Numbered from the stretch's first letter, positions 16,236 to 38,298 are shown. The stretch: 56,278 nucleotides of DNA from a virus (IMGVR_UViG_3300006916_000005:1-56278), one strand, 5' to 3'. Numbers and translations: made by a program. Notes: generated by a model from the sequence alone, not told the origin.

Positions 16236-16490
16236 GACCTTGGACAACCTCCGACCTCAAAAGCTCCAAGTTCTAAGAATATTATATATTTCTACTGATT
16301 TCAAAAAGGTTGGGGAGGTTGGGGAGGTTGTCTTTCATTAAGAAAATCAGGAACTTACTTCGGACGACCTTTGGACAACGGGTCGACCTTGGACGACCTT
16401 TGGACGACCTCGACCGCCCGAAGTCCCTTCTTTCGTGGGCTTTCGGGCGGTTTTGAAAGGTTGTCCAGAGGTTGGGTCGACCCGTTGTCC
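16236..16490. other. Origin-like element A: AT-rich core with opposed RACCT/AGGTY repeats and a 16-bp inverted repeat
   Basis: Non-coding; homologous to 40473-40637; inverted repeat 16373-16388 / 16475-16490. Confidence 0.55.
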
Positions 16491-16966
16491 TACAGCTCGA
16501 TGTCGGAGAGGTCCGCCTTCTGATAGTTCGGCCCCTTGATGATCTTCCCGCCCGGTTCTCGGACCGGGTTCCCGTCATCGTCGAGCTTGGACATGTTCGC
16601 CTCGTGGATACGCTGGAAGGCTTCAGGGACCGCCCGATCGAGGCCCAAGGTCACAGCCAGCCCGGAGACGACATAGATCAGATCGCAGACCTCCCAGAGA
16701 ACTTGACGCGGATCGCCGTCCAGAAGCGCCTCCGACACTTCCGCCAGCTCTTCGACGATCAGGCGGAACCGGAGGAAGGTCACGTCGTTGTCGTGGATCG
16801 CTCCGAGGCTCTTCAGGCTTTCAGAGAGACCGGCGAGAGCTTCTGATAGGATCGCCTGTCCGACCCTTGCCTGCGCGCTCTGTTGCGGCTGTGTGTATCG
16901 CTCCGGAGCATCGAGGCCCATCGCAAGATGGAACTCCCTCAGAGCGTCGAGTGAAGATTGTGACAT
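16490..16966 (-). CDS. MazG-like nucleotide pyrophosphohydrolase (PRA-PH type)
   Basis: EELAE, E.CDL.YV..G, H.ANMSK and GK..KGPNY motifs. Confidence 0.85.
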   Translation of the reverse strand: MSQSSLDALREFHLAMGLDAPERYTQPQQSAQARVGQAILSEALAGLSESLKSLGAIHDNDVTFLRFRLIVEELAEVSEALLDGDPRQVLWEVCDLIYVVSGLAVTLGLDRAVPEAFQRIHEANMSKLDDDGNPVREPGGKIIKGPNYQKADLSDIEL

Positions 16967-21589: not shown

Positions 21590-22122
21590 CTCATCCTCCA
21601 AATCTCGAACAGCTCTTCGGTCTGGGCGACCGCGTCGTGAACCGCGTCGTGTTCGATCAGGTCCGGTCGGCGTTCGAAGCCGGTGCCGGGACCCATGGCC
21701 CGGATCGTCCGGAAGCATCGGTCGAGCTTGTAGCTCCACGGGATCGACTTCCCGGCGCGGCGGTAGGTCTGGGCAAGGAGAGCGTTGTCGAACGCCGCTC
21801 CGTTGCCCCAGACGCCATCCAGAGGTCCGGCGTTCTCCAAGAACCCGGCGAACTGGTCGAGGCTCTCGTGGAGCGTCCATAAGCCTTCCGGAAGCGAGGC
21901 TCTCGCCTCGTCCTCCTGTTGAAGCCAGAACTCGACCGTGTCCGGGTCGATCACAGCTCCGTCGACGACCGCCTCCTTCAGCGGGATCGTCGCCCGGAAG
22001 GTGTCCTCGATCGCCCCGTCTTTCGTCCGGTGGTTCCAGTAGAACGAACAGGCTCCGATCGCCACGATCGGCGCGTCCATCCCGAGACCGAACGTCTCCA
22101 GATCAATCATCACATGGTTCAT
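21586..22122 (-). CDS. DEDDh 3'-5' exonuclease (Rv2179c / ExoVIII-like)
   Basis: HVMIDLET, WGNGA.FD, RC.RT and H.A..DA motifs. Confidence 0.9.
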   Translation of the reverse strand: MNHVMIDLETFGLGMDAPIVAIGACSFYWNHRTKDGAIEDTFRATIPLKEAVVDGAVIDPDTVEFWLQQEDEARASLPEGLWTLHESLDQFAGFLENAGPLDGVWGNGAAFDNALLAQTYRRAGKSIPWSYKLDRCFRTIRAMGPGTGFERRPDLIEHDAVHDAVAQTEELFEIWRMR

Positions 22123-22952
22123 TTAAACTTCTCCTCGAATTCGCGAAGCTCGCGCTCCGTCATCTTGCCAGTCATGTCCGCCGGGAGGATGTCGTAGGTC
22201 GAACGGCTGTACTCCTCCGCCATCCCGTGGACGAAAGCCACGATCCGCTCCCACTCCATCGCCGACAGCTGGACCGCGTTCAGGCGGTAGTCCTCGAACG
22301 CCTCCCACGCCCACGGACACAGCTCTTGCACCACGTCGGCGATCGGCTGGGTGAAGTCTCTGATCTCCTTCTGGGCGTGGCTGTCCATCCGGAGCCGGAG
22401 GAAGTGAAGAAGGTTGTGGAGGTCGATCTTCCAATAGAACTCCGTATAGGTGGCGAGCGGGAGGACGATCCGGGACTGTTCCTTCGAGACGCCCGATCGG
22501 ATCATCGCGTTGTAGAGGTCCGAGGTCCCGCTGTAGTGCTGATCGAGATCAGCCATCCAAGCTCGCGCGACATCCGGGTCGAGGTCCTCGCCGGAGCCTT
22601 GCTTGTTCAGCTGGCTCTGGTGGCGAAGCTCTGGGAAGTGGAACTCGTCCTTCATGATCGAGTAGCGCCCGGAATACTCGTTGATCGAGGCCGTCCGATG
22701 CCTGATCCATTGGCGAGCCACGAAGATCGGCATCTTCAGGTGGAACTTGAATTCGACCATCTCGAAGGGTGTCGTATGATAGTGGCGCATCAGGTAGCGG
22801 ATCAGACCGCGATCCTCGTTCACGCTCTTCGTCCCCTCGCCATAGGAGACCCTCGCCGCCTGACAGATCGCGGCGTCGTCCCCCATGCTGTCGACCAGAC
22901 GGACGAACCCGTGAGAGCCGACAGGCTGTTCGGTGTAGGTTGCTTTTGTCAT
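22119..22952 (-). CDS. thyX: Flavin-dependent thymidylate synthase
   Basis: AARVSY, H.TPFE, RHRTASINEYSGRY (RHRx7S) and HAQKEIR motifs. Confidence 0.97.
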   Translation of the reverse strand: MTKATYTEQPVGSHGFVRLVDSMGDDAAICQAARVSYGEGTKSVNEDRGLIRYLMRHYHTTPFEMVEFKFHLKMPIFVARQWIRHRTASINEYSGRYSIMKDEFHFPELRHQSQLNKQGSGEDLDPDVARAWMADLDQHYSGTSDLYNAMIRSGVSKEQSRIVLPLATYTEFYWKIDLHNLLHFLRLRMDSHAQKEIRDFTQPIADVVQELCPWAWEAFEDYRLNAVQLSAMEWERIVAFVHGMAEEYSRSTYDILPADMTGKMTERELREFEEKFK

Positions 22953-23134
22953 CAGTTCATCCTGTTCGCTTTTCCGTCGGTGTTTCGAACCCACTCCGAG
23001 ATGAAGTCTTCGGATTCGGAGGTCGGATAGATCGCGATCATCTCGAACCCGTCGCGGCGTTGCTGTTCAATGTGTCCATGCAAGTCATCGAGCGAGACCC
23101 GGAACTTGCAGTGTTCTCCCATCTTCTCGATCAC
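22952..23134 (-). CDS. Hypothetical protein
   Basis: 60 aa, coupled on both sides. Confidence 0.6.
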   Translation of the reverse strand: MIEKMGEHCKFRVSLDDLHGHIEQQRRDGFEMIAIYPTSESEDFISEWVRNTDGKANRMN

Positions 23135-25396: not shown

Positions 25397-27682
25397 CTAA
25401 ATCGGAATTTCTTGTTGAGGGTCGTTCTCCGCGTCGTCCCAGTCGAACGGTCCGCCATAGAGATCATCGAAGGTCGATCGACAAGTCTCGACTTTTGGCA
25501 TCTGCCAGCCTCGCCGACCATCCCGCTTGATCCCGATCGCTCCCATCTTCTTCATCTCTTCGGCGATGCCCATCTCCGTCTGACGGCGGCTGACCTTCGC
25601 TTGATCGGCGAAGTGGACGTAGGAGTTCGTCAGCTGTTGCGTCGTGATGTATCCGGGCCAGTCATCGCCCTCGACGAAGCCAGCTCGATCGAGGCTGATG
25701 AAGAGCCACTCCCGGAGGCTGTCGAACGTCCGCTTCTTCTGATCCTGAAGCGCCTCTGTCTTGGGCGCGTTCCGGACGTGCCATCCCTTCAGGTCGACCG
25801 ACAGGAGGAAGTGGAGAAGGTTCGCTTTCCCCTCGCCCTTGTAGAACCTGTCCTTGATCCGGGCGAAGTAGCTCTCGTCCTGTTTCCGTTCGTCGGAGAC
25901 GTCGAGGACGAAGTAGCGGCGAGCGTCCGCCCCAGCCGGGACGACCCAGTCCGAGTTCGAGGACATCACGAGGTGGACATAGTTCGAGCCTTGGACGATG
26001 TCGACGCCCTTCGCTTCGAACGCCCGGTTCGCGTCGGTGATCAGCGCCTTCAGGTCCGCTTCGTGTTTCTTGTCCCCGGCGAAGAACGCCTCGTTCGCGT
26101 GGACGAAGACCTTGTCCCGGAGGTGTCCGTTGAACTTCCCGACGACCTGTTCGGAGGCGGCTGTCTCAAAATAGTGGTGCTTCATCAGAGAGCCGATCGC
26201 CTCGACGAAGGTGTTCTTCCCGGTCCCCTCTCGCCCACGGAGGACGAGCGCGACTTCCGACTGGGTCGCCGGGTGCTGGACCAGACGAGCGCACCATTTG
26301 ACGACATAGTCGAAATGTTCCTCGTTGCCTGAACAGATGACATCCCGGATGTGATCGAGGATCAGCTGGTGATCTGTCCCAGCCTTCGGAGCGACGGAGA
26401 AGCCGCGCCAGAGGTTGTAATGATCGTTCGGGACCTCGCCTCCCGGAGCGAAGACGACCTTCTTGTAGGACCGCCTCTGTGGGTGGCTGAACCACCACTT
26501 ACCCCTCGACTTATAGATAGGCATCCCGTTTTGATCGTCGCCGACGTGGACTTGGATGTTCGAGAAGTAGTTCACGAACGCCCCTTGATCCATGAAGGAC
26601 AGCTCCCCGTTGGGTTCCTCTTCGACGACCCGGAGCTTCCCGCCGACCAGCGTCACGAAGTATTGATCGTTCATATCTGGGAGGTCCTCGTGGACCGCTG
26701 TCTCCTTGGCTCTCTGGATTTGCCGGACGACGTAGCCTTCCGGGTTCCCTTGGTCGAGGGTGTGGCCCGATATGCCCAAGGTGCTGTCGAGCAACACGGC
26801 GGCGATGTAGTCGTCCGGGACGCCAGCTCTGACCAGCTCACAAACGACATAGAAGGTCGCTCTCGATCGGTCTCCGTTCCAGCGGTTGCCGTCCTCGACG
26901 TCGGAGCCGTTGACGATCAGCATGGGGACGGAGGGGTGGAACTCTCCTTCCGTGGCGACAGCCTCCAGCTCCGGCCCCACGTCGTCGAGCCGAGGGAGGT
27001 TGCCTGACAGAGACACGGTGACGCGACCTCCGTCAGCCTTTGTTCCGCCGTCGATCTTGGGAGCCTTCTGGAAGTTCGAGAGGTCATAGCGGAGCTTGTG
27101 ATCAAAGTGGACGACATCCGTCGGAGCTTCGGCCCGACCCTTCGATCGCTTCTTGGCGTTCGGGATGTTGATCGTCCCGGGGAGCCTCATGATCCGGTCG
27201 ATGTTGTGGCAATGGTCGCCCTTGTATTCCAGCTCCAGCCAGCGGTTGAAGCTCTCGTGATCCGTCCAGTCTCCGCTGTCTGGGGTCGACGGCTTGTCGA
27301 GATGCCAGAACGCTTGATAGCCTCCGCCGCTGTCGATGATCAGGGTCGGCGTTGGGTTCGCCTCCTTCAGCGTCTTCAGGATGTTCGCGCGCTCCGCCGG
27401 GACGAGGTTCGGGTCCGTGGTCTGTGGGTCGACGTCGACGTGAAGCCACTCCGCCTCGACGATGTCCTCCTTCTTCGCCTTCTTGGTCAGGTTCTTGTCG
27501 CCGGAGCTGTTGACCTGAAAATAGATGTTCTCGTGACCTGATCGCTGGGAGATCGCGGTCTCCATCTGGTCGATCCGATCCTCGAAGAAGGTCGTCGTCG
27601 TGACACGACCGTCCGGGACGATGAACGTCAAGGTCCATGGCCCACCGGGGCGGAATTTTTGCAAGAATTCAATGCTGTTCAT
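25397..27682 (-). CDS. Primase-helicase (RepB-type AEP primase plus SF3/DUF5906 ATPase)
   Basis: DVD, SGGG.Q, RIMRLPGT.N motifs; Walker A G.EGTGKN; ARRYFV. Confidence 0.9.
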   Translation of the reverse strand: MNSIEFLQKFRPGGPWTLTFIVPDGRVTTTTFFEDRIDQMETAISQRSGHENIYFQVNSSGDKNLTKKAKKEDIVEAEWLHVDVDPQTTDPNLVPAERANILKTLKEANPTPTLIIDSGGGYQAFWHLDKPSTPDSGDWTDHESFNRWLELEYKGDHCHNIDRIMRLPGTINIPNAKKRSKGRAEAPTDVVHFDHKLRYDLSNFQKAPKIDGGTKADGGRVTVSLSGNLPRLDDVGPELEAVATEGEFHPSVPMLIVNGSDVEDGNRWNGDRSRATFYVVCELVRAGVPDDYIAAVLLDSTLGISGHTLDQGNPEGYVVRQIQRAKETAVHEDLPDMNDQYFVTLVGGKLRVVEEEPNGELSFMDQGAFVNYFSNIQVHVGDDQNGMPIYKSRGKWWFSHPQRRSYKKVVFAPGGEVPNDHYNLWRGFSVAPKAGTDHQLILDHIRDVICSGNEEHFDYVVKWCARLVQHPATQSEVALVLRGREGTGKNTFVEAIGSLMKHHYFETAASEQVVGKFNGHLRDKVFVHANEAFFAGDKKHEADLKALITDANRAFEAKGVDIVQGSNYVHLVMSSNSDWVVPAGADARRYFVLDVSDERKQDESYFARIKDRFYKGEGKANLLHFLLSVDLKGWHVRNAPKTEALQDQKKRTFDSLREWLFISLDRAGFVEGDDWPGYITTQQLTNSYVHFADQAKVSRRQTEMGIAEEMKKMGAIGIKRDGRRGWQMPKVETCRSTFDDLYGGPFDWDDAENDPQQEIPI

Positions 27683-27720
27683 AAGGCGGCTTTCTTGGTC
27701 AGGCGGATGTAAAGGGGAGC

Positions 27721-28038
27721 TTACTTCTGGAGCTTCCAGAAGTCAATGAGGTGTTGACAATCCTCGTGTCCTTTTTCCATCCGGTTGACCCAGAGGCGGG
27801 ACAAACCCAGCTCCTTCGCGAGCGCTCCCTGTGACATCTTCGATCGGTTGCGCATGATCACGCAAGCCTCGAAGTCCGACAGACGCCGCTTCAGCTTGCC
27901 GTTCTGGTTGCCTTCTTTCGCTTGATACTGGTGGCGGGTCAGACCCAGCCGATCAGCCATCTCGACCTGATCGAGACCGTCCCTGTGACGCTTGACCGCC
28001 AGCCATTCACCTTGATTAATTTCGAGCAAGTATCGCAT
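27721..28038 (-). CDS. Tandem XRE-type HTH regulator
   Basis: Two HTH repeats (Q.EMA..LGL and SQ..LA..LGLS...V..ME.G). Confidence 0.8.
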   Translation of the reverse strand: MRYLLEINQGEWLAVKRHRDGLDQVEMADRLGLTRHQYQAKEGNQNGKLKRRLSDFEACVIMRNRSKMSQGALAKELGLSRLWVNRMEKGHEDCQHLIDFWKLQK

Positions 28039-28429
28039 CGCGAAGCTCTCCTTTCATATCCTTGAAGCTCTCCCAGTGGCCGTCCGCCAGCATGATCAGC
28101 TCCATTCTTGTCACTCGCCCCAGATGATCGGCGGCGGTGTCTCCCCAGATCAGGAGATGTTCCTTCCCGACACCTATCAGGACGAAACACAATCCGCCAG
28201 CCTTACATCTGCGCTTGTGCCACACCCTTTGCTGTGGGCTGTAGTGATCGAGCCGGAGCGGGGTGTCCGGACGCTTGGGCCACTCCCGCACATATTTCAG
28301 TTCGACGTCGCAGACCGTGCAATTCACGTCAGGGACACCATCGGCGTCCGGGGTCTCGATCCGTTGCGGGTCCCAGCCCGAGAAGGCTGGTTTCACCGTC
28401 CGCCAGTATTGGCCCTCTCTAGTTCCCAT
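28016..28429 (-). CDS. PD-(D/E)xK nuclease, putative Holliday junction resolvase
   Basis: RIET....GVPD...ELK and Q..W motifs; adjacent to the polymerase. Confidence 0.75.
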   Translation of the reverse strand: MGTREGQYWRTVKPAFSGWDPQRIETPDADGVPDVNCTVCDVELKYVREWPKRPDTPLRLDHYSPQQRVWHKRRCKAGGLCFVLIGVGKEHLLIWGDTAADHLGRVTRMELIMLADGHWESFKDMKGELRDAILARN

Positions 28430-28432
28430 CGT

Positions 28433-30391
28433 TCATCCCATACTATCTCCCCAGTTCTTCCCGATCTCCACGTCGACCTTCGAGGGGACACGGAGCTGGA
28501 CACAGTTCGACATGATGTCCGCGAGGATGTGGGCGTCGGATGGAGAAGCGACCGACAGGTCGATCTCGTCATGGACCTGAAGCTGGAGCTGGATGTTCTC
28601 CCGATCGGCGGCGACGACCGCCATCTTCGTCTGATCGGCGGCGGAGCCTTGGATCAGCCTGTTCAGCGCCTTCTGGGTCCAGTCGTAGTTCGGCGACCCC
28701 AGCTGACGAGGGAAGCGACACTTCCGCCCAGAGAGCGTCCGGATGAAGCCGTTCTGGTTCGCGCGCTCTTTCAGGAGGTTCTCCATGTCCCGGAGGAACG
28801 GGAGCTTCCGGTAGAACCGGGAGAGGATTTGTTCCGCCTCATATCCAGCGACGACGCGCTTCGCTCCCTTGTTTGGGCCACGCCTGATCGTGATGATCTT
28901 CGTGTCCAGTCCGAGATCGTTGCAGAGCTTCTCCTGTCCCATCCCGTAGGTCAGCCCGAGGAAGAGCGTCTTCGCCTCCTTCCGGCTGACACCGGCGAGT
29001 TCAGCCATCATCTGATGGTTGTCCGCGTCCGGGTCGGTGCGATACTTCTCCGCCATGGTGTCCGCGCCGTTCATTGGATATTCGCCCAGACCGGCGACCC
29101 CGTTCTTGTGCAGCTGTTGCATCACCTCCGCCCAGTGGACGAGAAGCCGTGGCTCCTGTTGCGAGTAGTCACAAGCCGCCCACAGAGCGCCTTCTTCCGG
29201 CTCGTAGATCGACCGCCAGAGGGGACCGATCTCTTCGTCCCGTGCCGGTTGCTGTTGCATGTTCACATGCTCGCAAGAGAGGCGACCGTAGCGAGCGCCC
29301 TTGGTCTTCCCGTTGCCGCCTTCCTTCTCCATAGCGAGCTGGTTGAAATTGCAATGAATTCGACCGTTGACCAGATGCTCCTTGACAGGGTCGATCGAGA
29401 GCTTCCGGAGGGTGTCCCACTTCCGGAGATCAGACAGCGCCGCGACAGCCGGGTTCTCGATGTTGTTCGCGATGAAGACCTTGTCCATGCTGTCCTCGAC
29501 GTCGATGTCGATCCCGGTCGCCCGGAAACACTTGGCGAGGACCTCCTTCTGGAGAGCGTCTTCCGGTCCTACCCGAACTCCGGAGGCTTCGGTCATGATC
29601 TTCGCCGCCTCGACCCGACGCTGGAAACAGAGGTTCTCGATGTCCCGGAGCTTCTCTTCGTTGACCCGGACGCCGCGTCTCTTCATCCGGACCAGCGCCG
29701 GGAGAAGATCGCTTTCGAGGTCCCAGACATTGCGGATGTCCTGTCGATCGATCTCCGCCTCTTGCTTTCGGAGGACTTTCAGCGGGAGGGTCGCGTCGAC
29801 CTCCCCATAGACGCCCACGAAGCGAGCCGGAAGGATGTGTATCCACTCGCCAAGCGATCGCTTTTTGCCGTTCCAGCCGTAGGATCGAGCGGCTTCCTCC
29901 ATCATTGTCTTGTCCTTGCGGTGGCCGACCCAAGCCGCTCCGACGCTGTCGAGGCCGTAGGCGAACTTATTCTCGTCGATCAGAGGCTCCGCGACCAGAA
30001 CGTCCCGGAACCGCGCGACGTTTGGCATCAGGACGTCCTCTTCCCAGAGCCAGTCGAGGTCGTAGGACAGGTTCGCGCCGACGATCTCCCCGTCGAAGAA
30101 GTTGCACTGGTCCTTGATGTAGCGCATGACATTCTCCTTCGGGAGATTGTCGCCTTCCTGATGCTGGAACGGGAGATAGAACCCCTTCTCCTTGCCCTCG
30201 CCATAATCGAGGCCCACAGCGATCCCCGCCAGATGTCCGCCGGTCCGGACGGAGGGTCCGGTCTCGAACAGGAAGGGATCGAAGGTCTCGACGTCGAGAC
30301 AGACGCGCTTCAGGCCCTTCCACGATGGAAGGTCAGACAGCGAGGGGAGCGTCCAGTCACACGGCGGAGCAAAGAGAGGGAGCTGTCTCAT
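28433..30391 (-). CDS. polA: Family A DNA polymerase with 3'-5' exonuclease
   Basis: Exo DVET; motif A DYSQQEPR, motif B K...LGLTYG, IQGSAAD and motif C VHDE. Confidence 0.95.
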   Translation of the reverse strand: MRQLPLFAPPCDWTLPSLSDLPSWKGLKRVCLDVETFDPFLFETGPSVRTGGHLAGIAVGLDYGEGKEKGFYLPFQHQEGDNLPKENVMRYIKDQCNFFDGEIVGANLSYDLDWLWEEDVLMPNVARFRDVLVAEPLIDENKFAYGLDSVGAAWVGHRKDKTMMEEAARSYGWNGKKRSLGEWIHILPARFVGVYGEVDATLPLKVLRKQEAEIDRQDIRNVWDLESDLLPALVRMKRRGVRVNEEKLRDIENLCFQRRVEAAKIMTEASGVRVGPEDALQKEVLAKCFRATGIDIDVEDSMDKVFIANNIENPAVAALSDLRKWDTLRKLSIDPVKEHLVNGRIHCNFNQLAMEKEGGNGKTKGARYGRLSCEHVNMQQQPARDEEIGPLWRSIYEPEEGALWAACDYSQQEPRLLVHWAEVMQQLHKNGVAGLGEYPMNGADTMAEKYRTDPDADNHQMMAELAGVSRKEAKTLFLGLTYGMGQEKLCNDLGLDTKIITIRRGPNKGAKRVVAGYEAEQILSRFYRKLPFLRDMENLLKERANQNGFIRTLSGRKCRFPRQLGSPNYDWTQKALNRLIQGSAADQTKMAVVAADRENIQLQLQVHDEIDLSVASPSDAHILADIMSNCVQLRVPSKVDVEIGKNWGDSMG

Positions 30392-30948
30392 ATTGCGAAA
30401 AGTTCCTTCTTCCATGGGTGGCTGTCGCTGATAGTCGTCGACAAGACGTCCAGAACGTCAGCTCGTATCCCCGTTTCTTGCATCTGTGGGAAGGTCATCA
30501 GAACGCGAACACAGTTCTCCGCCTTCACCTCCATGAACCTGTTCCCCATCTTGACTTCGTCCAGAGCGTAGAACGTCGGCTCCAAGAGATCAAGGAACGC
30601 CAGATCGGAGGCTTCCTGATCGGTCAGCTCGACCACGATCCGGAGCTTCTCGCGGACCATCTCCGCCAGCTCGTGTTCCAGATCGCGCGCCCGGTTGTTC
30701 GAGAGCGGCTTCTTCGCGCCCCAAGGCCAGTCGCCCACGAGACCCTCGTGTCCGGCGTCGTGGAACGTCACAGCCTTAGCCAGAGCGGGCGTCATGCGGT
30801 CTTCGAGGATCGTGTAGCCGAGGACGAGCATCTGGTGGGAGTGTTGCCCCACGAGGTCCTCTTGGATTATCCGGTCGGCATGCCAGCGCTTGACAAACCC
30901 TCCTTCTCGGAGGGTCACGATCCGTTCAGCTTTTGTCGGTTCGGTCAT
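30388..30948 (-). CDS. HD-domain deoxynucleotidase (YfbR-like)
   Basis: 186 aa from MTEPTK; KRWH, V.QHS, HD...E...GD and D.LE motifs. Confidence 0.8.
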   Translation of the reverse strand: MTEPTKAERIVTLREGGFVKRWHADRIIQEDLVGQHSHQMLVLGYTILEDRMTPALAKAVTFHDAGHEGLVGDWPWGAKKPLSNNRARDLEHELAEMVREKLRIVVELTDQEASDLAFLDLLEPTFYALDEVKMGNRFMEVKAENCVRVLMTFPQMQETGIRADVLDVLSTTISDSHPWKKELFAI

Positions 30949-31675
30949 TTTTCTCTCTTTCCATGTTGACGAAGTGTTCAGCGGCGGCTCTCCAGTCATC
31001 GCCCTTGGGCATCTGGTGGAGTATCTCCAGAGCGGTGTCAAAGTTCCGATCCTCGACGGACATCCCAGCCGCCGCCATCGGGGTCGCGATCTTCCGGAAC
31101 CAGCTCTCGCGGAAGCCCACGGTCATCGGGTTCTCCCGGTAGATCGAGGCGTCCTGATCCCATATCTTCGGCGTGGTCGAGAACTGGTGTCTCGTATGGA
31201 GTTGCGTGTAGATCGTCGCGAGGTCGGGGTTGTCAGGCTCCGGGATGGGATCGAGGAAGAAGAACGGCTGGGTCAGGATAAGGCGGAGGGGTCCGGGACG
31301 TTTTCCGAGATGGTGACAGAGCCGAAGCCACATAAAGCAAGCCTCGACGATCATCCCATCGAGGAAGAATTCCTCGACCGACTTGTTCTCGTTCAGCGTG
31401 GTCAGTCCGTGCGAGACGTCGTCGCCCTCCCATTGCTCGAACTCCCAGTGGTTCTCCCGGAAGAGCGCCTTGAACTTCTTGAACGGGTTCCCGAAGACCC
31501 GGGGGTGGAACTCGACCAGCTGGGTCGGGTTGCGGATCGTCAGACAGACGGGAGACGTGAACGCCCACCGGGCGGGAGCCTCTCCCACCGTGGGGATCAT
31601 TCTGGTGTGATCGAGCGCCGCATTGCAGAGCCATGGATATGCTTGATTGATGTTCTCACAGTTGATGTTGATCAC
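30926..31675 (-). CDS. Degenerate thymidylate-synthase-fold protein (dUMP hydroxymethylase-like)
   Basis: N-terminal N.N.A and PV.....P...V.F.....NPF, C-terminal IA.PM and DWR.A resemble the YuA/M6-type enzyme; no recognisable PC or RS.D catalytic motifs. Confidence 0.55.
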   Translation of the reverse strand: MININCENINQAYPWLCNAALDHTRMIPTVGEAPARWAFTSPVCLTIRNPTQLVEFHPRVFGNPFKKFKALFRENHWEFEQWEGDDVSHGLTTLNENKSVEEFFLDGMIVEACFMWLRLCHHLGKRPGPLRLILTQPFFFLDPIPEPDNPDLATIYTQLHTRHQFSTTPKIWDQDASIYRENPMTVGFRESWFRKIATPMAAAGMSVEDRNFDTALEILHQMPKGDDWRAAAEHFVNMEREKNDRTDKS

Positions 31676-32148
31676 GGTGTATCCTTGAATTTGAGGTCGT
31701 AGGCGTGTTCGATGATGTCGTCGCGTTTATACATCATCCGATAAATCATCCCGCGAGACATCCCGCGCTCCTTCAGCTTCGCGAGCGTGTCCCCGGTCTT
31801 AGGCTCCACGATCTCCCAGACGTCGAACCAGCGGCTCCCCGGGAGGAACGGGTTCCCCTTGCATATGACCCGGATCGGAGTGTCCGGCGGGTGGTAGGCT
31901 TTATGTCTGATCCGTCCAGTGTCCGGTCGACCCATGCCGCGATAGCCGTCCTCCCGGACGGACGACAGGATCGCCTCGATCAGCTCGTCCCGATCTTCCG
32001 GGACGGGGTCCTCCGCTTCGTCCGCCAGCTGTTGCTTGTAAACGGGGACGATGTCCTCGTAGCTGATCGGCTCCCCGTTGTGAGGATAGACGAAGTCTGA
32101 AGGCCACCAGACGTTCTTGAAGTGTGTTCCGAATTTCCAGACAGGCAA
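31672..32148 (-). CDS. Hypothetical protein, possibly DNA-binding
   Basis: 158 aa, TTG start after AAGGAG; C-terminal I.V....NP..PGS motif. Confidence 0.65.
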   Translation of the reverse strand: MPVWKFGTHFKNVWWPSDFVYPHNGEPISYEDIVPVYKQQLADEAEDPVPEDRDELIEAILSSVREDGYRGMGRPDTGRIRHKAYHPPDTPIRVICKGNPFLPGSRWFDVWEIVEPKTGDTLAKLKERGMSRGMIYRMMYKRDDIIEHAYDLKFKDTP

Positions 32149-32203
32149 CGGTCAGGCTCCTTTCTCCTCGATCCTTATCACAGGACTGGGGCGAGTGTAA
32201 ATA

Positions 32204-32605
32204 TCATTTATCGGCGGGTGTAAATCCGAGACAGCGTTGGAGACGACTGATCGCCAGCTTATTGTCTCCCCTGCGGATCGCGTCGATCGCCCATCTGATC
32301 TCGCTCTCGAGGGTCGCGCCGCCTTCAGCCACCTTCGCCAGCATCCGGCGATCGACCTCCGCGAAGCCGGTGTCGCGCATCGGCGGCTCTTGGATCACTC
32401 CGGTCCACTTGGGCGCGTTGAACGGCTCCATCGCCTCCTTGACGCCATCCCGGAAGTCCCGGAGCTTCGCCGGGTCCGGGTCCATGTGGCTCTTCAGGCA
32501 ATGCGAAGCCACGCGGATCGCATCGAGGACCTTTTCGCCCCGGGGTGGGAAGAGCCGATCGAAGTCGGCTCTCTTTTTGTTCCTTTCCATCAGCGGTTCT
32601 CCCAT
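32204..32605 (-). CDS. Hypothetical protein
   Basis: 133 aa from MGEPLME; TAATG coupling. Confidence 0.65.
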   Translation of the reverse strand: MGEPLMERNKKRADFDRLFPPRGEKVLDAIRVASHCLKSHMDPDPAKLRDFRDGVKEAMEPFNAPKWTGVIQEPPMRDTGFAEVDRRMLAKVAEGGATLESEIRWAIDAIRRGDNKLAISRLQRCLGFTPADK

Positions 32606-32913
32606 TAGAAAAGGTTCGCGATGACCATCCCGGCGAGGACCCGGGCGTCGGCGTGTTGACGGGAGATGCCACAGCCCAGAAGCTCCCAGACCTTGTCGCC
32701 GCCGAACTTCGACATCGAACCGATCTTGGTTCCGTCGCTGTTGCGGAGGACGATCAGGTAGAAGTCCCACTTTGTGTTGCCTTCTTCGTCATACTGGACC
32801 GGCTGGACGTCGAGGGTCAGGGTCTCGCCATTCACGGTCACGGTGTCGTCGGTGGCGACCAGCTCCAGCTCGTCGTTGATCCAGTTTTCGGGGTTGAATG
32901 TCATAGTGGTCAT
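32605..32913 (-). CDS. Hypothetical protein (first gene of a cassette)
   Basis: 102 aa behind repeat and GGAG RBS. Confidence 0.8.
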   Translation of the reverse strand: MTTMTFNPENWINDELELVATDDTVTVNGETLTLDVQPVQYDEEGNTKWDFYLIVLRNSDGTKIGSMSKFGGDKVWELLGCGISRQHADARVLAGMVIANLF

Positions 32914-32923
32914 TGGTCTATCT

Positions 32924-32969
32924 CCGTTTCTGATGATCCAGAGATAGTCTATCTCCCGGCAGATGTAAA
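32924..32969 (-). promoter_or_regulatory. Promoter/leader repeat copy 11
   Basis: TTTACATCTGCCGGGAGATAGACTATCTCTGGATCATCAGAAACGG. Confidence 0.85.
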
Positions 32970-32992
32970 CCCCCCGCCGGGAAATAATTTGT

Positions 32993-33490
32993 TCAGAGAA
33001 TGGAAACGAGTTTCCGGACGTTGTCCCGGAGCGTGTCCAGCGATCCGTTGTTGAAGACGATCCAGTCCGGGTTCGCGCTCTCTTCGGTGATGTCCATCGA
33101 CCCGGTCTCCGGCGGATGACGTAAGGAGGCGTCGACCCAGATGACCCGATCGAACAGCTCCCGGGCCACGTCCAGCTCGTCCTGTCGCCTCATTCCGACA
33201 TACATGTCGAACCCACGCTCCAGCATCGTCCGGGCTGTCTTCGCCTTGTCTGGCGTGTTGTAGGCGCTGATCATCTGCATCCAGAGGACGCGGTGGTTCA
33301 CTCGGTCCGCGAACATGTCCTCGAAGCTGTCGTAGACCGCGCATCCCCAGTTGTCCCACATGACCTCCCGGGCCACAAACTCCGAAGAGCTGGTGAACCG
33401 GAAGCCGAACTCGTCGCGAAGTATCTCGCCGACCGTGTCCTTCCCGTGTCGGGCGTAGCCCAAGATCAGGAGCTTCGGGCGGTCAGACAT
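32993..33490 (-). CDS. Deoxynucleoside monophosphate kinase-like P-loop protein
   Basis: ILGYARHGKDT P-loop, G.R...E and NNG.L motifs. Confidence 0.8.
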   Translation of the reverse strand: MSDRPKLLILGYARHGKDTVGEILRDEFGFRFTSSSEFVAREVMWDNWGCAVYDSFEDMFADRVNHRVLWMQMISAYNTPDKAKTARTMLERGFDMYVGMRRQDELDVARELFDRVIWVDASLRHPPETGSMDITEESANPDWIVFNNGSLDTLRDNVRKLVSIL

Positions 33491-33671
33491 CCTTCGCTCC
33501 GACGTTCCAATAGACGTAGGCCATCAGAGCGACGTCGATCGCGGCTCCGATCAGGTTCAGGGTGGCGAGGTCCAAGACAAGGAACAAAACAGCCGCTCCG
33601 AAGATGATCTTGTCGATCTGTGCGGCGATTGCCATCCGAAGTCGGATGTCGGTGATGATTTTCTTCCACAT
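33483..33671 (-). CDS. Small membrane protein
   Basis: 62 aa from MWKKIIT; two hydrophobic segments. Confidence 0.6.
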   Translation of the reverse strand: MWKKIITDIRLRMAIAAQIDKIIFGAAVLFLVLDLATLNLIGAAIDVALMAYVYWNVGAKDV

Positions 33672-35422
33672 TATGAACAGTCCTTTTTGCCGGTTGCGGG
33701 GTCCCAGACGCACTTCGTCGGGTCCCATGCTTCAGCCTCTTCGTCGAGGCTCTCGATCACACTTCCCCTTCCCTCGCCTTCCGGCTTCGGAGTGTAGGTT
33801 GTGCATCCCTTCGCGCCGCCTTCCCATGCTTGGATGTATAGGCTCTTGAAGTCCTCCCATTCGATGTCCGGGGAGACGTTGCAAGTCTTCGAGACGGAGC
33901 TGTCGATGTAGCGGGCGGCGGTGGTCAGGACGTCGACGTGTTCCCGGGCTGTCAGGTCGTTCGCGCGGCGTCCCTTGACGCCGAAGTATTCCACGCCATA
34001 GTCCCGGAGGATCACCTTCTCGTCACCCTCGATGGTCTTCACCTTGCGCTCTTGGCTGTAGGAGAAGACAGGCTCGATCCCGGAGCTGACGTTGTCCGCC
34101 CCGAAGCTGATCGACCCCGTGGGCGCGATCGAGGTCAGGAGACCGTTCCTGATGCCGTGCTTCGCGATCATCTCCTTGACGCCTGTCCCAGCGAGCGCTG
34201 GACCGTTCAAGAAGGCGCTGTTGAGGAACCGTTCGTCGTAGAGTGGGAAGGCTCCCTTCATCATCGCCGCCTCGACGCTCGCCTCGTAGGCTTTCACGTT
34301 CAGCGTCTTCAGAATTCGAGCCTCGAATTCGAGGAACTCTTGGGTCCCGTAGGGGAAGCCACAGGCTTCGGCGGCGTTCGCGAGACCGGTGATCCCGATC
34401 CCCATCCGGCGCTTCGACTTGGCTTCCTTCTCCTGTTCATAGAGAGGGAAGATCGCGACGTCCGGGACCATGTCCATCGCCCACACGATCGGCGCTATGT
34501 CTTCCTCGAACTCGCTCCAGTTGAAGCTCCACTCGATCTCGCCGACGGTGGAGACCACGCGGCGGGAGACATACTTCGGGAGGTTGACCGACCCAAGGAG
34601 ACAAGCGCCATATGGTGGGAGCGGCTGTTCCCCGCATGGGTTCGTCGCGGCGATCGTCTCGATATAGGAGAGGTTATTCATCCGGTTGATCTGGTCGATG
34701 AACAGGACGCCGGGTTCGGCCCAGTCCCACGTCGATCGCATGATCAGCTCCCAGAGCGCCGCCGGGTCGACTTCCCGGTAGGTTCGGCCCTCGAACTGAA
34801 GAGGGAACGGTCGCCCAAGGGAGAGACATTCCATGAAGTGGTCCGTGATCGCGATCGACAGATTGAACCCTGTCAGCTGGTCGTGGTTGTGCTTCGCCCG
34901 GACGAATTCCTCGATGTCCGGATGATCGACGCGGAGGACGCCCATCTGAGCGCCCCGGCGGTTCCCGGAGCTGGCTGTGTTCGCACAGACGGCGTCGAAA
35001 ATCTTCAGGAAGCCCACAGGACCGCCGGTCTGGCTCTGGAGCTTGCGTATCATGTCGCCGCGTGGGCGGAGGGTGCTGAAGTCGTATCCGATCCCGCCTC
35101 CCATCCGCATCGTCTGGGCGGCTTCCGTTGCGCGAGCCATGATCGAGCCATGTCCATCGACGAAGCTGTCCTCGATCGTGCCTGACACGAAACAGTTGTA
35201 TGGGGTGACGGACTTGGTCGAGCCGATCGCAGCTTGGATGCGCCCAGCCGGGAGGAACTTCATCTGGAGAAGGATGTCCCGGAAGGTGTGGAACTGGTTC
35301 GAGTTGTCTGTCAGGCCAGCCGCGATCCGGGTCATCGCTTCCTTGTAGCTCTCCCCGATCTGGCGGTGTTTCGTTCGGTGAATTTCGTCACAGGCTGGGT
35401 TTATTGGTCCGATATGGTCCAT
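33671..35422 (-). CDS. nrdJ: Class II (B12-dependent) ribonucleotide reductase
   Basis: NCFV, GGG.G.DFS.LRP, RRGAQM, TNPCGEQ, APTG motifs; no small-subunit gene seen. Confidence 0.9.
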   Translation of the reverse strand: MDHIGPINPACDEIHRTKHRQIGESYKEAMTRIAAGLTDNSNQFHTFRDILLQMKFLPAGRIQAAIGSTKSVTPYNCFVSGTIEDSFVDGHGSIMARATEAAQTMRMGGGIGYDFSTLRPRGDMIRKLQSQTGGPVGFLKIFDAVCANTASSGNRRGAQMGVLRVDHPDIEEFVRAKHNHDQLTGFNLSIAITDHFMECLSLGRPFPLQFEGRTYREVDPAALWELIMRSTWDWAEPGVLFIDQINRMNNLSYIETIAATNPCGEQPLPPYGACLLGSVNLPKYVSRRVVSTVGEIEWSFNWSEFEEDIAPIVWAMDMVPDVAIFPLYEQEKEAKSKRRMGIGITGLANAAEACGFPYGTQEFLEFEARILKTLNVKAYEASVEAAMMKGAFPLYDERFLNSAFLNGPALAGTGVKEMIAKHGIRNGLLTSIAPTGSISFGADNVSSGIEPVFSYSQERKVKTIEGDEKVILRDYGVEYFGVKGRRANDLTAREHVDVLTTAARYIDSSVSKTCNVSPDIEWEDFKSLYIQAWEGGAKGCTTYTPKPEGEGRGSVIESLDEEAEAWDPTKCVWDPATGKKDCS

Positions 35423-35508
35423 CGTTTTCCTCTTGGTTTTGATTGTCGCAGACCTTCGATCATACATGTCAGGCGTCTCCGTTCAATTCATCTTTGCTAT
35501 TGACAACA

Positions 35509-35829
35509 CTATTCGTCAGGCTCGCGCTCGTGATCTCCAGACCCTTGTGTGTCTTTTCCATATTTCATCCCCTTCAGAGCGAGCGCCACGAGGTCCCAGA
35601 TCGGACGAGAGAGGCGACTGTAGTCCTTGATCTCTGTCTTCCTGATCACGTCGGGAGAGCCGTGGGAGACGGACACCGCCAGCGGGCGTCTCCGACCTTT
35701 CTTGACAGCGACCGCCCGGTAGTTGCCCTTCCGGTTGGTCCCTGTCCCGTCGTTCGCGATCACCAGCTCGCCAAGGGTGGTGACGCTGCCAGTGATCGCG
35801 GAGTGAAGTTCGACCTTGACGACGATCAT
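35509..35829 (-). CDS. Hypothetical protein
   Basis: 106 aa; I.NDG.G....GNY motif. Confidence 0.7.
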   Translation of the reverse strand: MIVVKVELHSAITGSVTTLGELVIANDGTGTNRKGNYRAVAVKKGRRRPLAVSVSHGSPDVIRKTEIKDYSRLSRPIWDLVALALKGMKYGKDTQGSGDHEREPDE

Positions 35830-36538: not shown

Positions 36539-37378
36539 TCAGATCGGGATGTCGTCGTCGAGGTCCGGCGTGGGGTTGCCGCCTCCGTTCTCTTCGCCGC
36601 CAGCCTGATCGGTCCGGTCGGCGGTCCCAAGGTCAGCCTTTGCAGCGCCTTCCGAGACCATGTCATGGAAAGCGAGACCAGCTTGGAACAGATCGTCGTT
36701 GGGTGCCAAGCGACAGTCCTTCGCGCTGCCTCCGTCAAAGGACAGCGAGATGTTCTGGAACTTCTTCCCGTTCGACTTGGCGATCTCCTGTTCGGTGGTC
36801 ACGCGCCAGACATGCGCCCACAAGGGGAGCTTGATCCGGCGATCGCCGACGACGAGCGTCTGAGCTGTCGCCTTCGTGATGAATTGGCGATACTTCTTCA
36901 GCTTCATCGACGAGAAGCCAAGGACGACCCGTTCATAGTCCCCATCGTCGTCGAGGACGAGGCCGTAGAGATAGATCGTCTCGACAAGGTCATGAACCTC
37001 GCCGGTCTCCGCGTCGTGACACTGGAGCTTGATCGGGGAGTTCCCGTTCTTGCGGATCGCGTCCTGAACGAACTGGCTGTCCGGATCATGAACGCCGACG
37101 AAGCCGCCGCCGCTGTCCACCGGAACCCATTCCACGAAAACGCGCTGACGATAACAGGGGATGAAGCGGAAGTCGTCCATCACCGTTTCCATGACGTTGT
37201 TGTAGAATTGGCCCTGTTTCGCCTTTCCATCTTCCACCAGCTCCGAGTTGGACTGGAGGACGTTGACGAACGGGATCGCAAGTTCAGAGCGATCGACGTT
37301 CTCGAAGCCTGTGGCCCCAGCATAGTCGCCCCATTCGGCGACATCTGTGGCTTGCTTCTTGGTGACTGCGTTTGCCAT
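36539..37378 (-). CDS. Single-stranded DNA-binding/annealing protein
   Basis: 279 aa; GFE, IP...LQ..S and FVEW.....GGG motifs; acidic tail ending DDDIPI. Confidence 0.7.
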   Translation of the reverse strand: MANAVTKKQATDVAEWGDYAGATGFENVDRSELAIPFVNVLQSNSELVEDGKAKQGQFYNNVMETVMDDFRFIPCYRQRVFVEWVPVDSGGGFVGVHDPDSQFVQDAIRKNGNSPIKLQCHDAETGEVHDLVETIYLYGLVLDDDGDYERVVLGFSSMKLKKYRQFITKATAQTLVVGDRRIKLPLWAHVWRVTTEQEIAKSNGKKFQNISLSFDGGSAKDCRLAPNDDLFQAGLAFHDMVSEGAAKADLGTADRTDQAGGEENGGGNPTPDLDDDIPI

Positions 37379-37435
37379 GTGTTGTTCCTTTCACAAGTTG
37401 GCTTTTCGGTTCGGGAGGCTCCATTGCCTCCCTGT

Positions 37436-38008
37436 TTATCCCGTGACCTTCGCGACGCGCTTAGTGTAAGCGCCGAACAGGTCCATCGGAATTTCGGTTC
37501 CCGCCTTCAGCTGTTCGTTGACGAACGCCTTCAGGGTGGTGGGTTCAACCTTGCGACTGAACGTCCCGGGATATGTCTTGATGCTGTCGATCCAGCTCTT
37601 GAACTTCTTCTCGTTGTCCCGACCGGTCTGGAAGATGCCGGTCCGCTTGATCAGTCCGCCGTGACCATGCTCTTCAAGCCAGTCATAAACCTTTTCGCGA
37701 TCGGCGGCTTTCGGGGAGGCGAAGGTGGACGTGATGATCGTCACAGCCTTCCCGTCGACCTTGATGACGCTGTCGTCATCGAGGCCCATGTCCTCGAAGG
37801 TTGCCGGGATCGTCAGCTCCACGAGCTTCGTCCGGCGCTCCTTGGCGGTCTTCAGTTCAGCTTCGAGGCGGTCGATCTCTTCGTCCTCCAGCTTCAGCTG
37901 TCGAATTTGATCTTCGAGGACCGCCTTCGTGTTGTTCCCCATCTTGGGAGGGGTTGCTTCCTGTTCGTCCGCGTAGGCTTCCCAGTCTTGGGTTGATTGA
38001 TCTGTCAT
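37436..38008 (-). CDS. Conserved replication-module protein
   Basis: 190 aa from MTDQSTQ; coiled coil, WL...GHG.LIK and V.P.TLKAFV.E motifs. Confidence 0.7.
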   Translation of the reverse strand: MTDQSTQDWEAYADEQEATPPKMGNNTKAVLEDQIRQLKLEDEEIDRLEAELKTAKERRTKLVELTIPATFEDMGLDDDSVIKVDGKAVTIITSTFASPKAADREKVYDWLEEHGHGGLIKRTGIFQTGRDNEKKFKSWIDSIKTYPGTFSRKVEPTTLKAFVNEQLKAGTEIPMDLFGAYTKRVAKVTG

Positions 38009-38019
38009 GTCAGGCTCCT

Positions 38020-38298
38020 TTATCCGAACTCGCCGGTCTCTTCGGCGGCTGTCCTTGCGTTGTTGACGACGCCGTCCCATGCCTCTTCACTGAAGATCGC
38101 GACGAAGGACTTCTTGTCCAGCGCGATCCCGTTGACGAGGACACTGTCGACATCGAACTCTGGACCCCATCCCGGCTCGCCGGGGAAGTTCATCGAAGGC
38201 ATCGCCGCCGGTTCACCTCTCTCCGTGCAAACGAGGACGACGTCCACATTGAACGCGAATTCCATGTCTTCCAGTTCGGTGTTGAATGTGTAGTTCAT
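38020..38298 (-). CDS. Hypothetical acidic protein
   Basis: 92 aa. Confidence 0.65.
   Translation of the reverse strand: MNYTFNTELEDMEFAFNVDVVLVCTERGEPAAMPSMNFPGEPGWGPEFDVDSVLVNGIALDKKSFVAIFSEEAWDGVVNNARTAAEETGEFG

Follow-up and report, generated by a model that had tools for sequence, protein, structure and literature searches.

A shortened, apparently non-catalytic descendant of the phage dUMP hydroxymethylase in a virus genome that encodes ThyX

Thymidine hypermodification is a major counter-defence of phages, and the dUMP hydroxymethylase (DUHMT) is its first enzyme. The analysis presented here concerns the gene that occupies the place of this enzyme in the virus record IMGVR_UViG_3300006916_000005, which comprises 56,278 bases, is bounded by direct terminal repeats and is complete (100% by the CheckV estimate); this whole stretch of DNA is called the window throughout. 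The gene lies at 30926..31675 on the minus strand and encodes a protein of 249 residues. What is new is that this protein is, as far as the sequence of the one genome inspected can tell, a catalytically dead, shortened and conserved descendant of the phage dUMP hydroxymethylase. A literature search found no report of a pseudoenzyme with the thymidylate synthase (TS) fold in phages.

The closest described system is the DUHMT of YuA (gp17), M6 and PhiJL001 (gp24), which corresponds to phrog_5131. In the parts of PMC5889632 and PMC8989533 that deal with the 5-hydroxymethyluracil (hmU) pathway, DUHMT produces 5-hydroxymethyl-dUMP (5-hmdUMP), dTMPase and dTTPase remove T, a dCMP deaminase feeds dUMP, and a kinase and enzymes of the aGPT-Pplase type act on the DNA. 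DUHMT is reported, in a section of PMC11946847, for all Mesyanzhinovviridae analysed there, so that a dead version would be an exception. The window protein resembles DUHMT in its locus upstream of an HD-domain gene and of the DNA polymerase gene (PolA), in its N-terminal module, in its C-terminal helical domain and in its overall fold. It differs in being ~100 residues shorter and in lacking the Cys of the PCN motif, the Arg-Arg strand and the motifs RSND, GANxVH and NFHAY. The genomes differ as well, since the window has no kinase, HMUDK_hel or Nmad5 and encodes ThyX instead.

The TS alpha/beta fold is also shared with ThyA and with the dCMP hydroxymethylase of T4, gp42 (PF00303), but the window protein has neither a PF00303 match nor the catalytic residues, and it carries an extra C-terminal domain. 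T4 gp42 has a structural role that couples deoxynucleoside triphosphate synthesis to replication. The best structural match of the window protein is MilA, the CMP 5-hydroxymethylase of Streptomyces rimofaciens (PDB 5jnh and 5b6d), with which it has about 10% sequence identity. MilA and the window protein have in common an extra C-terminal helical domain that, according to part of PMC5175136, is absent from ThyA and from T4 dCMP hydroxymethylase; in the same part of that paper, the MilA domain is described as five helices away from the active site, of unknown function, and its truncations as insoluble. MilA is an active homodimer that has its catalytic Cys and all six strands of the sheet, whereas in the window protein the active site and a portion of the core are missing.

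Homology, predicted fold and lost motifs

The gene and the three parts of its product are as follows.

30926..31675, minus strand: gene of the short TS/MilA-fold protein, 249 residues, with a GTG start and the stop codon at 30926-30928
31460..31675, minus strand: residues 1-72, N-terminal module (strand 1, helix A, three strands and the start of helix B with GNPF), which aligns confidently to the N-terminus of full-length DUHMT
31181..31459, minus strand: residues 73-165, putatively mapped remnant core and linker (hairpin 80-94, helices 100-123, strand 126-134), without the Cys, RSxD and Asn motif
30929..31180, minus strand: residues 166-249, C-terminal helical domain, common to full-length phage DUHMT and MilA (alpha9-13)

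The Pfam scan of the protein gave no match at E<=0.1, and the PHROGs scan gave phrog_5131 ('thymidylate synthase', E 4.8e-8) at residues 157-244 only, equivalent to profile positions 250-343 of 357. When 50,697 phage records were searched by tblastn, 53 records matched, all of them at residues ~166-248 only (47 Pseudomonas phages of the YuA/M6 type, three Rhizobium phages, PhiJL001, Sphaerotilus SN1 and one Pseudanabaena phage). BLASTP against PhiJL001 gp24 gave E 7e-13 at the C-terminus and a non-significant E 0.13 at the N-terminus. An annotation as 'thymidylate synthase' that relied on the phrog_5131 match of the C-terminal domain only would lead to a mistaken prediction of modified DNA.

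The N-terminal relationship was recognised by profile-profile comparison (hhalign) of five short-family proteins, which are described below, with 22 full-length homologues from IMG/VR. The two profiles aligned over 246 columns with a probability of 99.6% and E 9.8e-25. Confidence was high at residues 2-70 and 166-245 and low in between, and the middle part of the short form alone gave no usable alignment with the full-length profile (E 0.19). These results indicate that both termini are homologous to the enzyme, as the initial annotation had proposed from their likeness, and that the middle is past recognisable similarity. Both the N-terminal module and the C-terminal helical domain of DUHMT (phrog_5131) are hence present in the window protein. 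Compared with PDB sequences, the short-family profile had no match at E<=10, and the profile of the full-length phage family had MilA as its closest match (E 1.7e-31), with ThyA at about 1e-20. A PF00303 search of the window genome found nothing at E<=0.001.

The fold was predicted with AlphaFold2 on a 31-row alignment. The resulting model has a mean predicted local distance difference test score (pLDDT) of 94.4 and a predicted template modelling score (pTM) of 0.90; residues 71-140 reach pLDDT 91-97, and the linker 141-160 is lowest at 71-85. The best PDB matches in Foldseek were the CMP hydroxymethylase MilA (E 1.7e-5) and then many thymidylate synthases, and the best viral matches were phage thymidylate synthases. 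Comparison by VIA-align gave Z 16.9 against MilA, with a root-mean-square deviation of 3.0 A and 219 of the 249 residues aligned (model 4-241 on chain 4-329), compared with about Z 10 over 145-170 residues for ThyA-type enzymes. In the ESM Atlas the best scores, 0.81 for clusters of TS fragments, were under the meaningful level. The TS fold, on whose presence the interpretation in the initial annotation depended, was found in this way in the predicted structure.

For comparison, a model was built of the intact enzyme from L048, the nearest relative (pLDDT 92.3). Its strands (E) and helices (H) follow the order E2-6, H9-23, E25-29, E32-36, E41-45, H62-73, H79-83, H89-92, H103-110, H116-126, E134-136 and H143-148, and then E157-164, E170-176, H185-204, E208-215, E218-221, H222-233 and four helices. 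In the short model the order is E2-6, H9-23, E24-27, E36-39, E43-47, H64-70, E80-84, E87-94, H100-105, H108-123, E126-134, H150-153 and four helices, so that helix 64-70 leads straight to the hairpin 80-94 without the intervening full-length elements 79-148. In terms of the TS fold, the hairpin would supply strands iii and iv, and helix 108-123 would be the counterpart of helix J and strand 126-134 that of strand v. On this assignment, the short form would be smaller by about 98 residues in total, ~80 of them between helix B and the Cys strand. The missing stretch would begin where helix B ends and extend through the helix that precedes the PCN strand, so that the Arg-Arg strand and the helices of the folate side would be lost with it. 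The short strand that follows strand v, and the helix after it, would likewise be gone.

The catalytic motifs have disappeared from the whole short family. A pattern search for PC[NH], RS[NQ]D and G[AS]NxVH found them in none of the five short-family proteins. Among 42 full-length homologues from IMG/VR, PCN is present in all 42 and NRS[NQ]D in 36; three of the other six were aligned and read CRSND. The SRNG loop, the Arg-Arg strand, RSxD and GANxVH are invariant in 22-23 full-length proteins, and not one of the five short proteins carries any of them. At the P-C-N site, before hairpin 80-94, the short proteins read N-H-W-E-F or similar, and at the N-R-S-N-D site they read N-E-N-K-S or similar. 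The shortness and the lack of catalytic PC and RS.D described in the initial annotation were in this way borne out, the alignment leaving no catalytic residue in place. Judged by the features of the TS superfamily, the protein has the fold, and it has no catalytic Cys, no phosphate-binding Arg or base-reading Asn, and no match to the sequence model of the family. It is concluded that the 249-residue protein would be unable to act as a TS-family enzyme, and dUMP hydroxymethylase activity is predicted to be absent because all catalytic motifs are lost. A MAFFT column had placed C113 at the position of the catalytic Cys; this proved to be an alignment artefact, and C113, the sole invariant Cys, lies inside a helix of the model.

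The locus and the thymidylate supply of the genome

The genes that adjoin the TS-like gene are the following.

28433..30415, minus strand: family A DNA polymerase (PolA), which belongs to the same gene string as the TS-like gene and lies downstream of it
30388..30948, minus strand: HD-domain gene (YfbR-like 5'-deoxynucleotidase family), with a 23-nt overlap with the 3' end of the TS-like gene
31672..32148, minus strand: open reading frame (ORF) of 158 residues and of unknown family; its stop and the GTG with which the TS-like gene starts share bases (GTGA)

The order of genes in the window (TS-like, HD, PolA, phrog_2165 protein, repressor-like, primase) is that of YuA gp17-gp26 and PhiJL001 gp24-gp33, which means that the location upstream of the HD gene and polA, pointed out in the initial annotation, is an orthologous one. 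An HD gene with the family motif lies directly downstream of the intact TS-like gene in 34 of the 40 IMG/VR loci that have at least 560 bases downstream of it (three further loci were too short to judge). The PolA of the window is 64% identical to that of L048, 60% to that of L005/L049, 58% to that of PhiJL001 and 44% to that of YuA, and the PolA proteins of L048, L005/L049 and PhiJL001 are 66-72% identical to one another. All of these nearest PolA relatives have an intact DUHMT of 350-360 residues, 47-59% identical mutually, and with these enzymes the window protein has local matches only (33-42% over 69-92 residues). Since the nearest PolA relatives are all intact, parsimony places the shortening and a burst of change on the branch of the window itself. 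The 249-residue protein can be taken as the orthologue of DUHMT, changed in place.

The reading frame is uninterrupted and coupled to its neighbours, in agreement with the initial annotation. Its GTG start is backed by an alignment in which homologues start at the corresponding position; it overlaps the TGA that ends the 158-residue ORF and has AAGGA 6 nt upstream, and at the other end the ATG of the HD gene (30948) falls 23 nt within the frame.

Further genes of thymidylate and nucleotide supply are found elsewhere in the window.

22119..22994, minus strand: ThyX, flavin-dependent thymidylate synthase, intact; the GTG of the longest ORF lies 14 codons before a likelier ATG at 22952
32993..33490, minus strand: deoxynucleoside monophosphate (dNMP) kinase, found by the Pfam/PHROGs scans and unmentioned in the initial annotation
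33671..35467, minus strand: ribonucleotide reductase
16490..16966, minus strand: MazG-like nucleotide pyrophosphohydrolase

The ThyX gene, which had been called intact from the outset, matches the whole model of PF02511 (E 1.2e-57) and has the RHRxxS motif (RHRTASINEYSGRY motif). The initial annotation had recognised no gene for an hmU kinase or transferase, and the same was found with families chosen from scans of the YuA, PhiJL001 and RHph_I65 proteins: at E<=1 the window genome has no PF18748 (5-hmdU DNA kinase, acting on the 5-hydroxymethyl-deoxyuridine of DNA), PF18723 (HMUDK_hel), PF18757 (Nmad5) or PF00383 (dCMP deaminase). Further, tblastn of the genome at E<=0.01 gave no match to the pyridoxal phosphate (PLP) enzyme of YuA, to its radical S-adenosylmethionine (SAM) enzyme or to the TAGT glycosyltransferase of PhiJL001. 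For comparison, 15 records were taken from 44 full-length TS-like loci (13 of 42 loci, on contigs of at least 48 kb, plus L047 and PhiJL001), 14 of the 15 being at least 90% complete. All 15 of these records with intact DUHMT have PF18723, 12 of them have PF18748 and none has ThyX, and the window, with the module absent and ThyX present, is their mirror image, in line with the proposal of a lost hypermodification. Ordinary T is most likely the base of the virion DNA, to judge from gene content. The window genome would be a clear case of hypermodification abandoned, with the module gone and ThyX gained, and it aids the prediction of DNA chemistry from sequence.

The nearest phage ThyX proteins are those of Rhodobacter and Loktanella phages, with 52-59% identity; they are not of the Mesyanzhinovviridae type and not from related phages. 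The thyX gene looks to have been acquired from the gene pool of alphaproteobacterial phages, and its kinship would fit both horizontal acquisition and an alphaproteobacterial host. As for the dCMP deaminase, it is annotated next to PolA in YuA (gp23), PhiJL001 (gp30) and RHph_I65 (protein 015); in the window the phrog_2165 gene comes directly after PolA, without a deaminase.

The HD protein of the window keeps all 13 invariant columns of the TS-adjacent HD family. It is the most divergent member of that family, with 29-33% identity compared with 36-53% among its relatives, and its blocks RCH..PH.G.Y and HDVPERW.GD.PAPAK are altered. Its specificity may have shifted upon loss of the T-excluding pathway. 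On the other side of the TS-like gene, the 158-residue ORF matches no Pfam or PHROG family and shows no similarity to Nmad5, which holds that position in relatives. The upstream ORFs of 158, 102, 188 and 81 residues were considered as degenerate forms of Nmad5 and rejected, the comparison with the Nmad5 alignment giving E 0.24-0.69 and probabilities of at most 0.2%.

Maintenance of the short form and alternative explanations

Relatives of the short form were sought by an exhaustive protein search over 1.84 billion representatives, and four proteins, carried on contigs of 1.7-58.8 kb (Logan/ENA, cluster look-up), matched the 249-residue ORF over most or the whole of its length (E 3e-66 to 3e-52).

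P0002: 203 residues, 57% identity, E 3e-66, beginning at window residue 53
P0003: 250 residues, 46% identity, E 8e-63
P0004: 252 residues, 42% identity, E 6e-53
P0005: 256 residues, 41% identity, E 3e-52

A word-indexed protein search with the 249-residue protein returned the protein itself only, and scans of viral, metagenome and genome contigs with the single protein and the family alignment found no further short forms with DNA. In the alignment of the five short proteins, 44 columns are invariant and are distributed from one end to the other, and in a tree of 34 proteins the five form one clade (SH-aLRT 99). Their mean pairwise identity is 49% at residues 1-72, 35% at residues 73-165 (linker included) and 55% at residues 166-245. 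Among 22 full-length proteins the corresponding values are 58% for the N-terminal part, 58% for the core, 30% for the linker and 40% for the C-terminal part, and from this comparison it appears that the C-terminal domain has taken over the constraint that the catalytic core used to bear. Because relatives that are 40-57% identical have the same short architecture, and because the C-terminal domain is the most conserved part, selection seems to maintain the protein, and we infer that it is kept as a pseudoenzyme. The conserved short family, the compact and confident model and the coding-type composition together argue against a decaying remnant. For this reason the initial annotation fared well in proposing a retained pseudo-enzyme and less well in calling the gene 'eroded', a misleading label for a stable, compact and conserved short form that does not appear to be breaking down.

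Six other representatives of 226-335 residues (P0007, P0008, P0009, P0017, P0027 and P0028), whose looked-up contigs measure 1.8-3.3 kb, have no RSND or GANxVH and keep the C-terminal helical domain; the 'PCN' string of P0009 is outside the catalytic position. P0007 and P0017 are on separate long branches of the tree, P0008 joins P0009, and P0027 and P0028 were not in the tree. This set of motif-less representatives suggests repeated inactivation. In P0021, a full-length DUHMT-like protein of 635 residues, an insertion of ~290 residues with Hint/HNH-like features separates 'WGC' from 'CYGANAVHFS' and is probably an intein inside the TS-fold core.

Taken together, it is probable, with a fair measure of doubt, that the hmU hypermodification pathway was lost and that DUHMT was kept in place as a short, non-catalytic pseudoenzyme. 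The interpretation offered by the initial annotation is supported to this extent, as each element of it that could be checked held. In the sequence of events that is envisaged, the ancestral DUHMT of siphophages of the YuA/M6/PhiJL001 type would have made 5-hmdUMP for thymine hypermodification. The lineage would have lost the post-replicative module (5-hmdU DNA kinase, HMUDK_hel, Nmad5 and tailoring enzymes) together with the dCMP deaminase, and it would have gained ThyX, which makes dTMP, so that ordinary thymine would be packaged. The DUHMT gene would have stayed, shedding ~100 residues, for the most part the helices of the folate side and the strand with the two Arg, along with all catalytic and dUMP-binding motifs. 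A compact TS/MilA-fold body would have been retained, in which the strand-helix module of the N-terminus and the helical domain of the C-terminus flank what is left of the sheet, with helix J. The task of the short protein is most likely non-catalytic and may be one that the N- and C-terminal module already had in the active enzyme. Speculatively, the protein might make contact with another protein among those for replication and nucleotide supply whose genes surround its own (ribonucleotide reductase, dNMP kinase, HD, PolA, primase, helicase); HD and PolA would be the candidate partners suggested in the initial annotation. When a complex was predicted for the TS-like protein (alignment of 31 rows) and the HD protein (17 rows), both runs gave a score of 0.00, a 'no answer' that speaks neither for nor against binding.

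The conservation and predicted folding of a protein that is apparently dead as an enzyme suggest that the helical domain at its C-terminus has a second function, for which the short family is a natural test construct. It is conceivable, and put forward tentatively, that the N-terminal module and the C-terminal five-helix domain carry an essential function independent of catalysis, such as docking nucleotide synthesis onto the replisome, that the short family would be a natural separation-of-function allele, and that this conversion would recur when phages give up hmU DNA.

Several observations weigh against a retained pseudoenzyme or limit how far it can be taken. The association of short form, ThyX and missing kinase compares a single genome with 15. 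The deletion was mapped by the order of secondary-structure elements and not by superposition, and the residue-level mapping is an inferred one. The stem of the short clade measures 2.81 changes per column, a value inflated in part by misaligned middle columns, and with so long a branch the tree does not settle the position or sister group of the clade within DUHMT. Population reads, from four near-clonal freshwater metagenome runs, contain only 2 single-nucleotide polymorphisms within the frame, namely 31103 G>T, which is non-synonymous (S191R, one contig), and 31502 G>T, which is synonymous; a third, 31681 A>G, is synonymous and belongs to the upstream ORF. Finally, the invariant polar residues E55, H89, N95, C113, R131 and T135 could mark a new ligand site.

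This last point is the basis of an explanation that is unlikely, although it fares best among the alternatives. In a neofunctionalised protein, the remnant sheet and helix J would form a new pocket for a new ligand or a chemistry unrelated to the C5 of pyrimidines. Together with K67, the polar residues just named are invariant in the remnant core (5/5 or 4/4), a region which is also modelled with confidence. However, every known nucleotide-binding residue of the fold is lost, the remnant core is the least conserved region, well below the C-terminal domain, and the only family or structure matches found were of the TS/MilA type.

It is improbable that the gene is an unpurged, non-functional remnant, an ORF open by chance or kept only because the HD gene has its start and ribosome-binding site in the 3' end of it. 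The start and a purine-rich leader of the HD gene do sit there, and the protein has changed faster than expected given the moderate divergence of PolA, its local identity to intact DUHMTs being lower than the identity of these enzymes to each other. Yet five proteins down to 40% identity keep the length, the invariant columns and an open frame, and the N-terminus, which is distant from the HD start, has 49% mean identity. The model is compact (pLDDT 94), and the composition is of the coding type along the ORF, with G+C at third codon positions (GC3) of 0.80 compared with 0.40 at second positions (GC2) and GC3 of 0.65-0.92 per 50-codon window, the divergent middle included.

In other systems, binding of thymidylate synthases to the mRNA that encodes them occurs, and by analogy the TS-fold relic might be a regulatory nucleic-acid binder that represses or couples translation of the adjoining replication genes. 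The basic N-terminal third of the protein (pI 9.1), followed by an acidic remainder, and the overlap of the gene with both neighbours are consistent with such a role. It is nevertheless a very improbable one, as Pfam, Foldseek and VIA-align gave no match to a nucleic-acid-binding family or fold, and the idea is one of analogy, unaided by any conserved RNA structure or repeat. Least probable of all is that thymine is still replaced or modified by another route with the short protein as its non-catalytic subunit, since the retained dNMP kinase, HD nucleotidase-type protein and MazG-like pyrophosphohydrolase and the many small ORFs without known family, which would suit it, are set against an intact ThyX that makes dTMP, a genome with no TS-family enzyme bearing a catalytic Cys, the negative searches for kinase, HMUDK_hel, Nmad5, glycosyltransferase, PLP and radical-SAM homologues, and larger scanned ORFs that are structural, replicative or of unknown function.

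Genome setting

Every credible gene of the window is on the minus strand. The genome has ~60% G+C, and its credible genes have GC3 of about 0.7-0.87 and GC2 of about 0.35-0.5. The sequencing runs in which the window DNA was found are freshwater metagenomes, with no RNA run listed among them. A promoter and terminator scan of 27600-35800 gave counts at chance level. Among 20 larger ORFs scanned elsewhere in the genome, the functions were structural, packaging, replication or none known; the small ORFs were scanned in part. An Rv2179c-like exonuclease and a helicase are also encoded in the window. Between the helicase and the ribonucleotide reductase, at 36539-38080 on the minus strand, there are two adjoining genes of families without known function, one Pam3 gp34-like (PF23977, E 6e-53) and the other Pam3 gp33-like (DUF7307, PF23984, E 7e-28).

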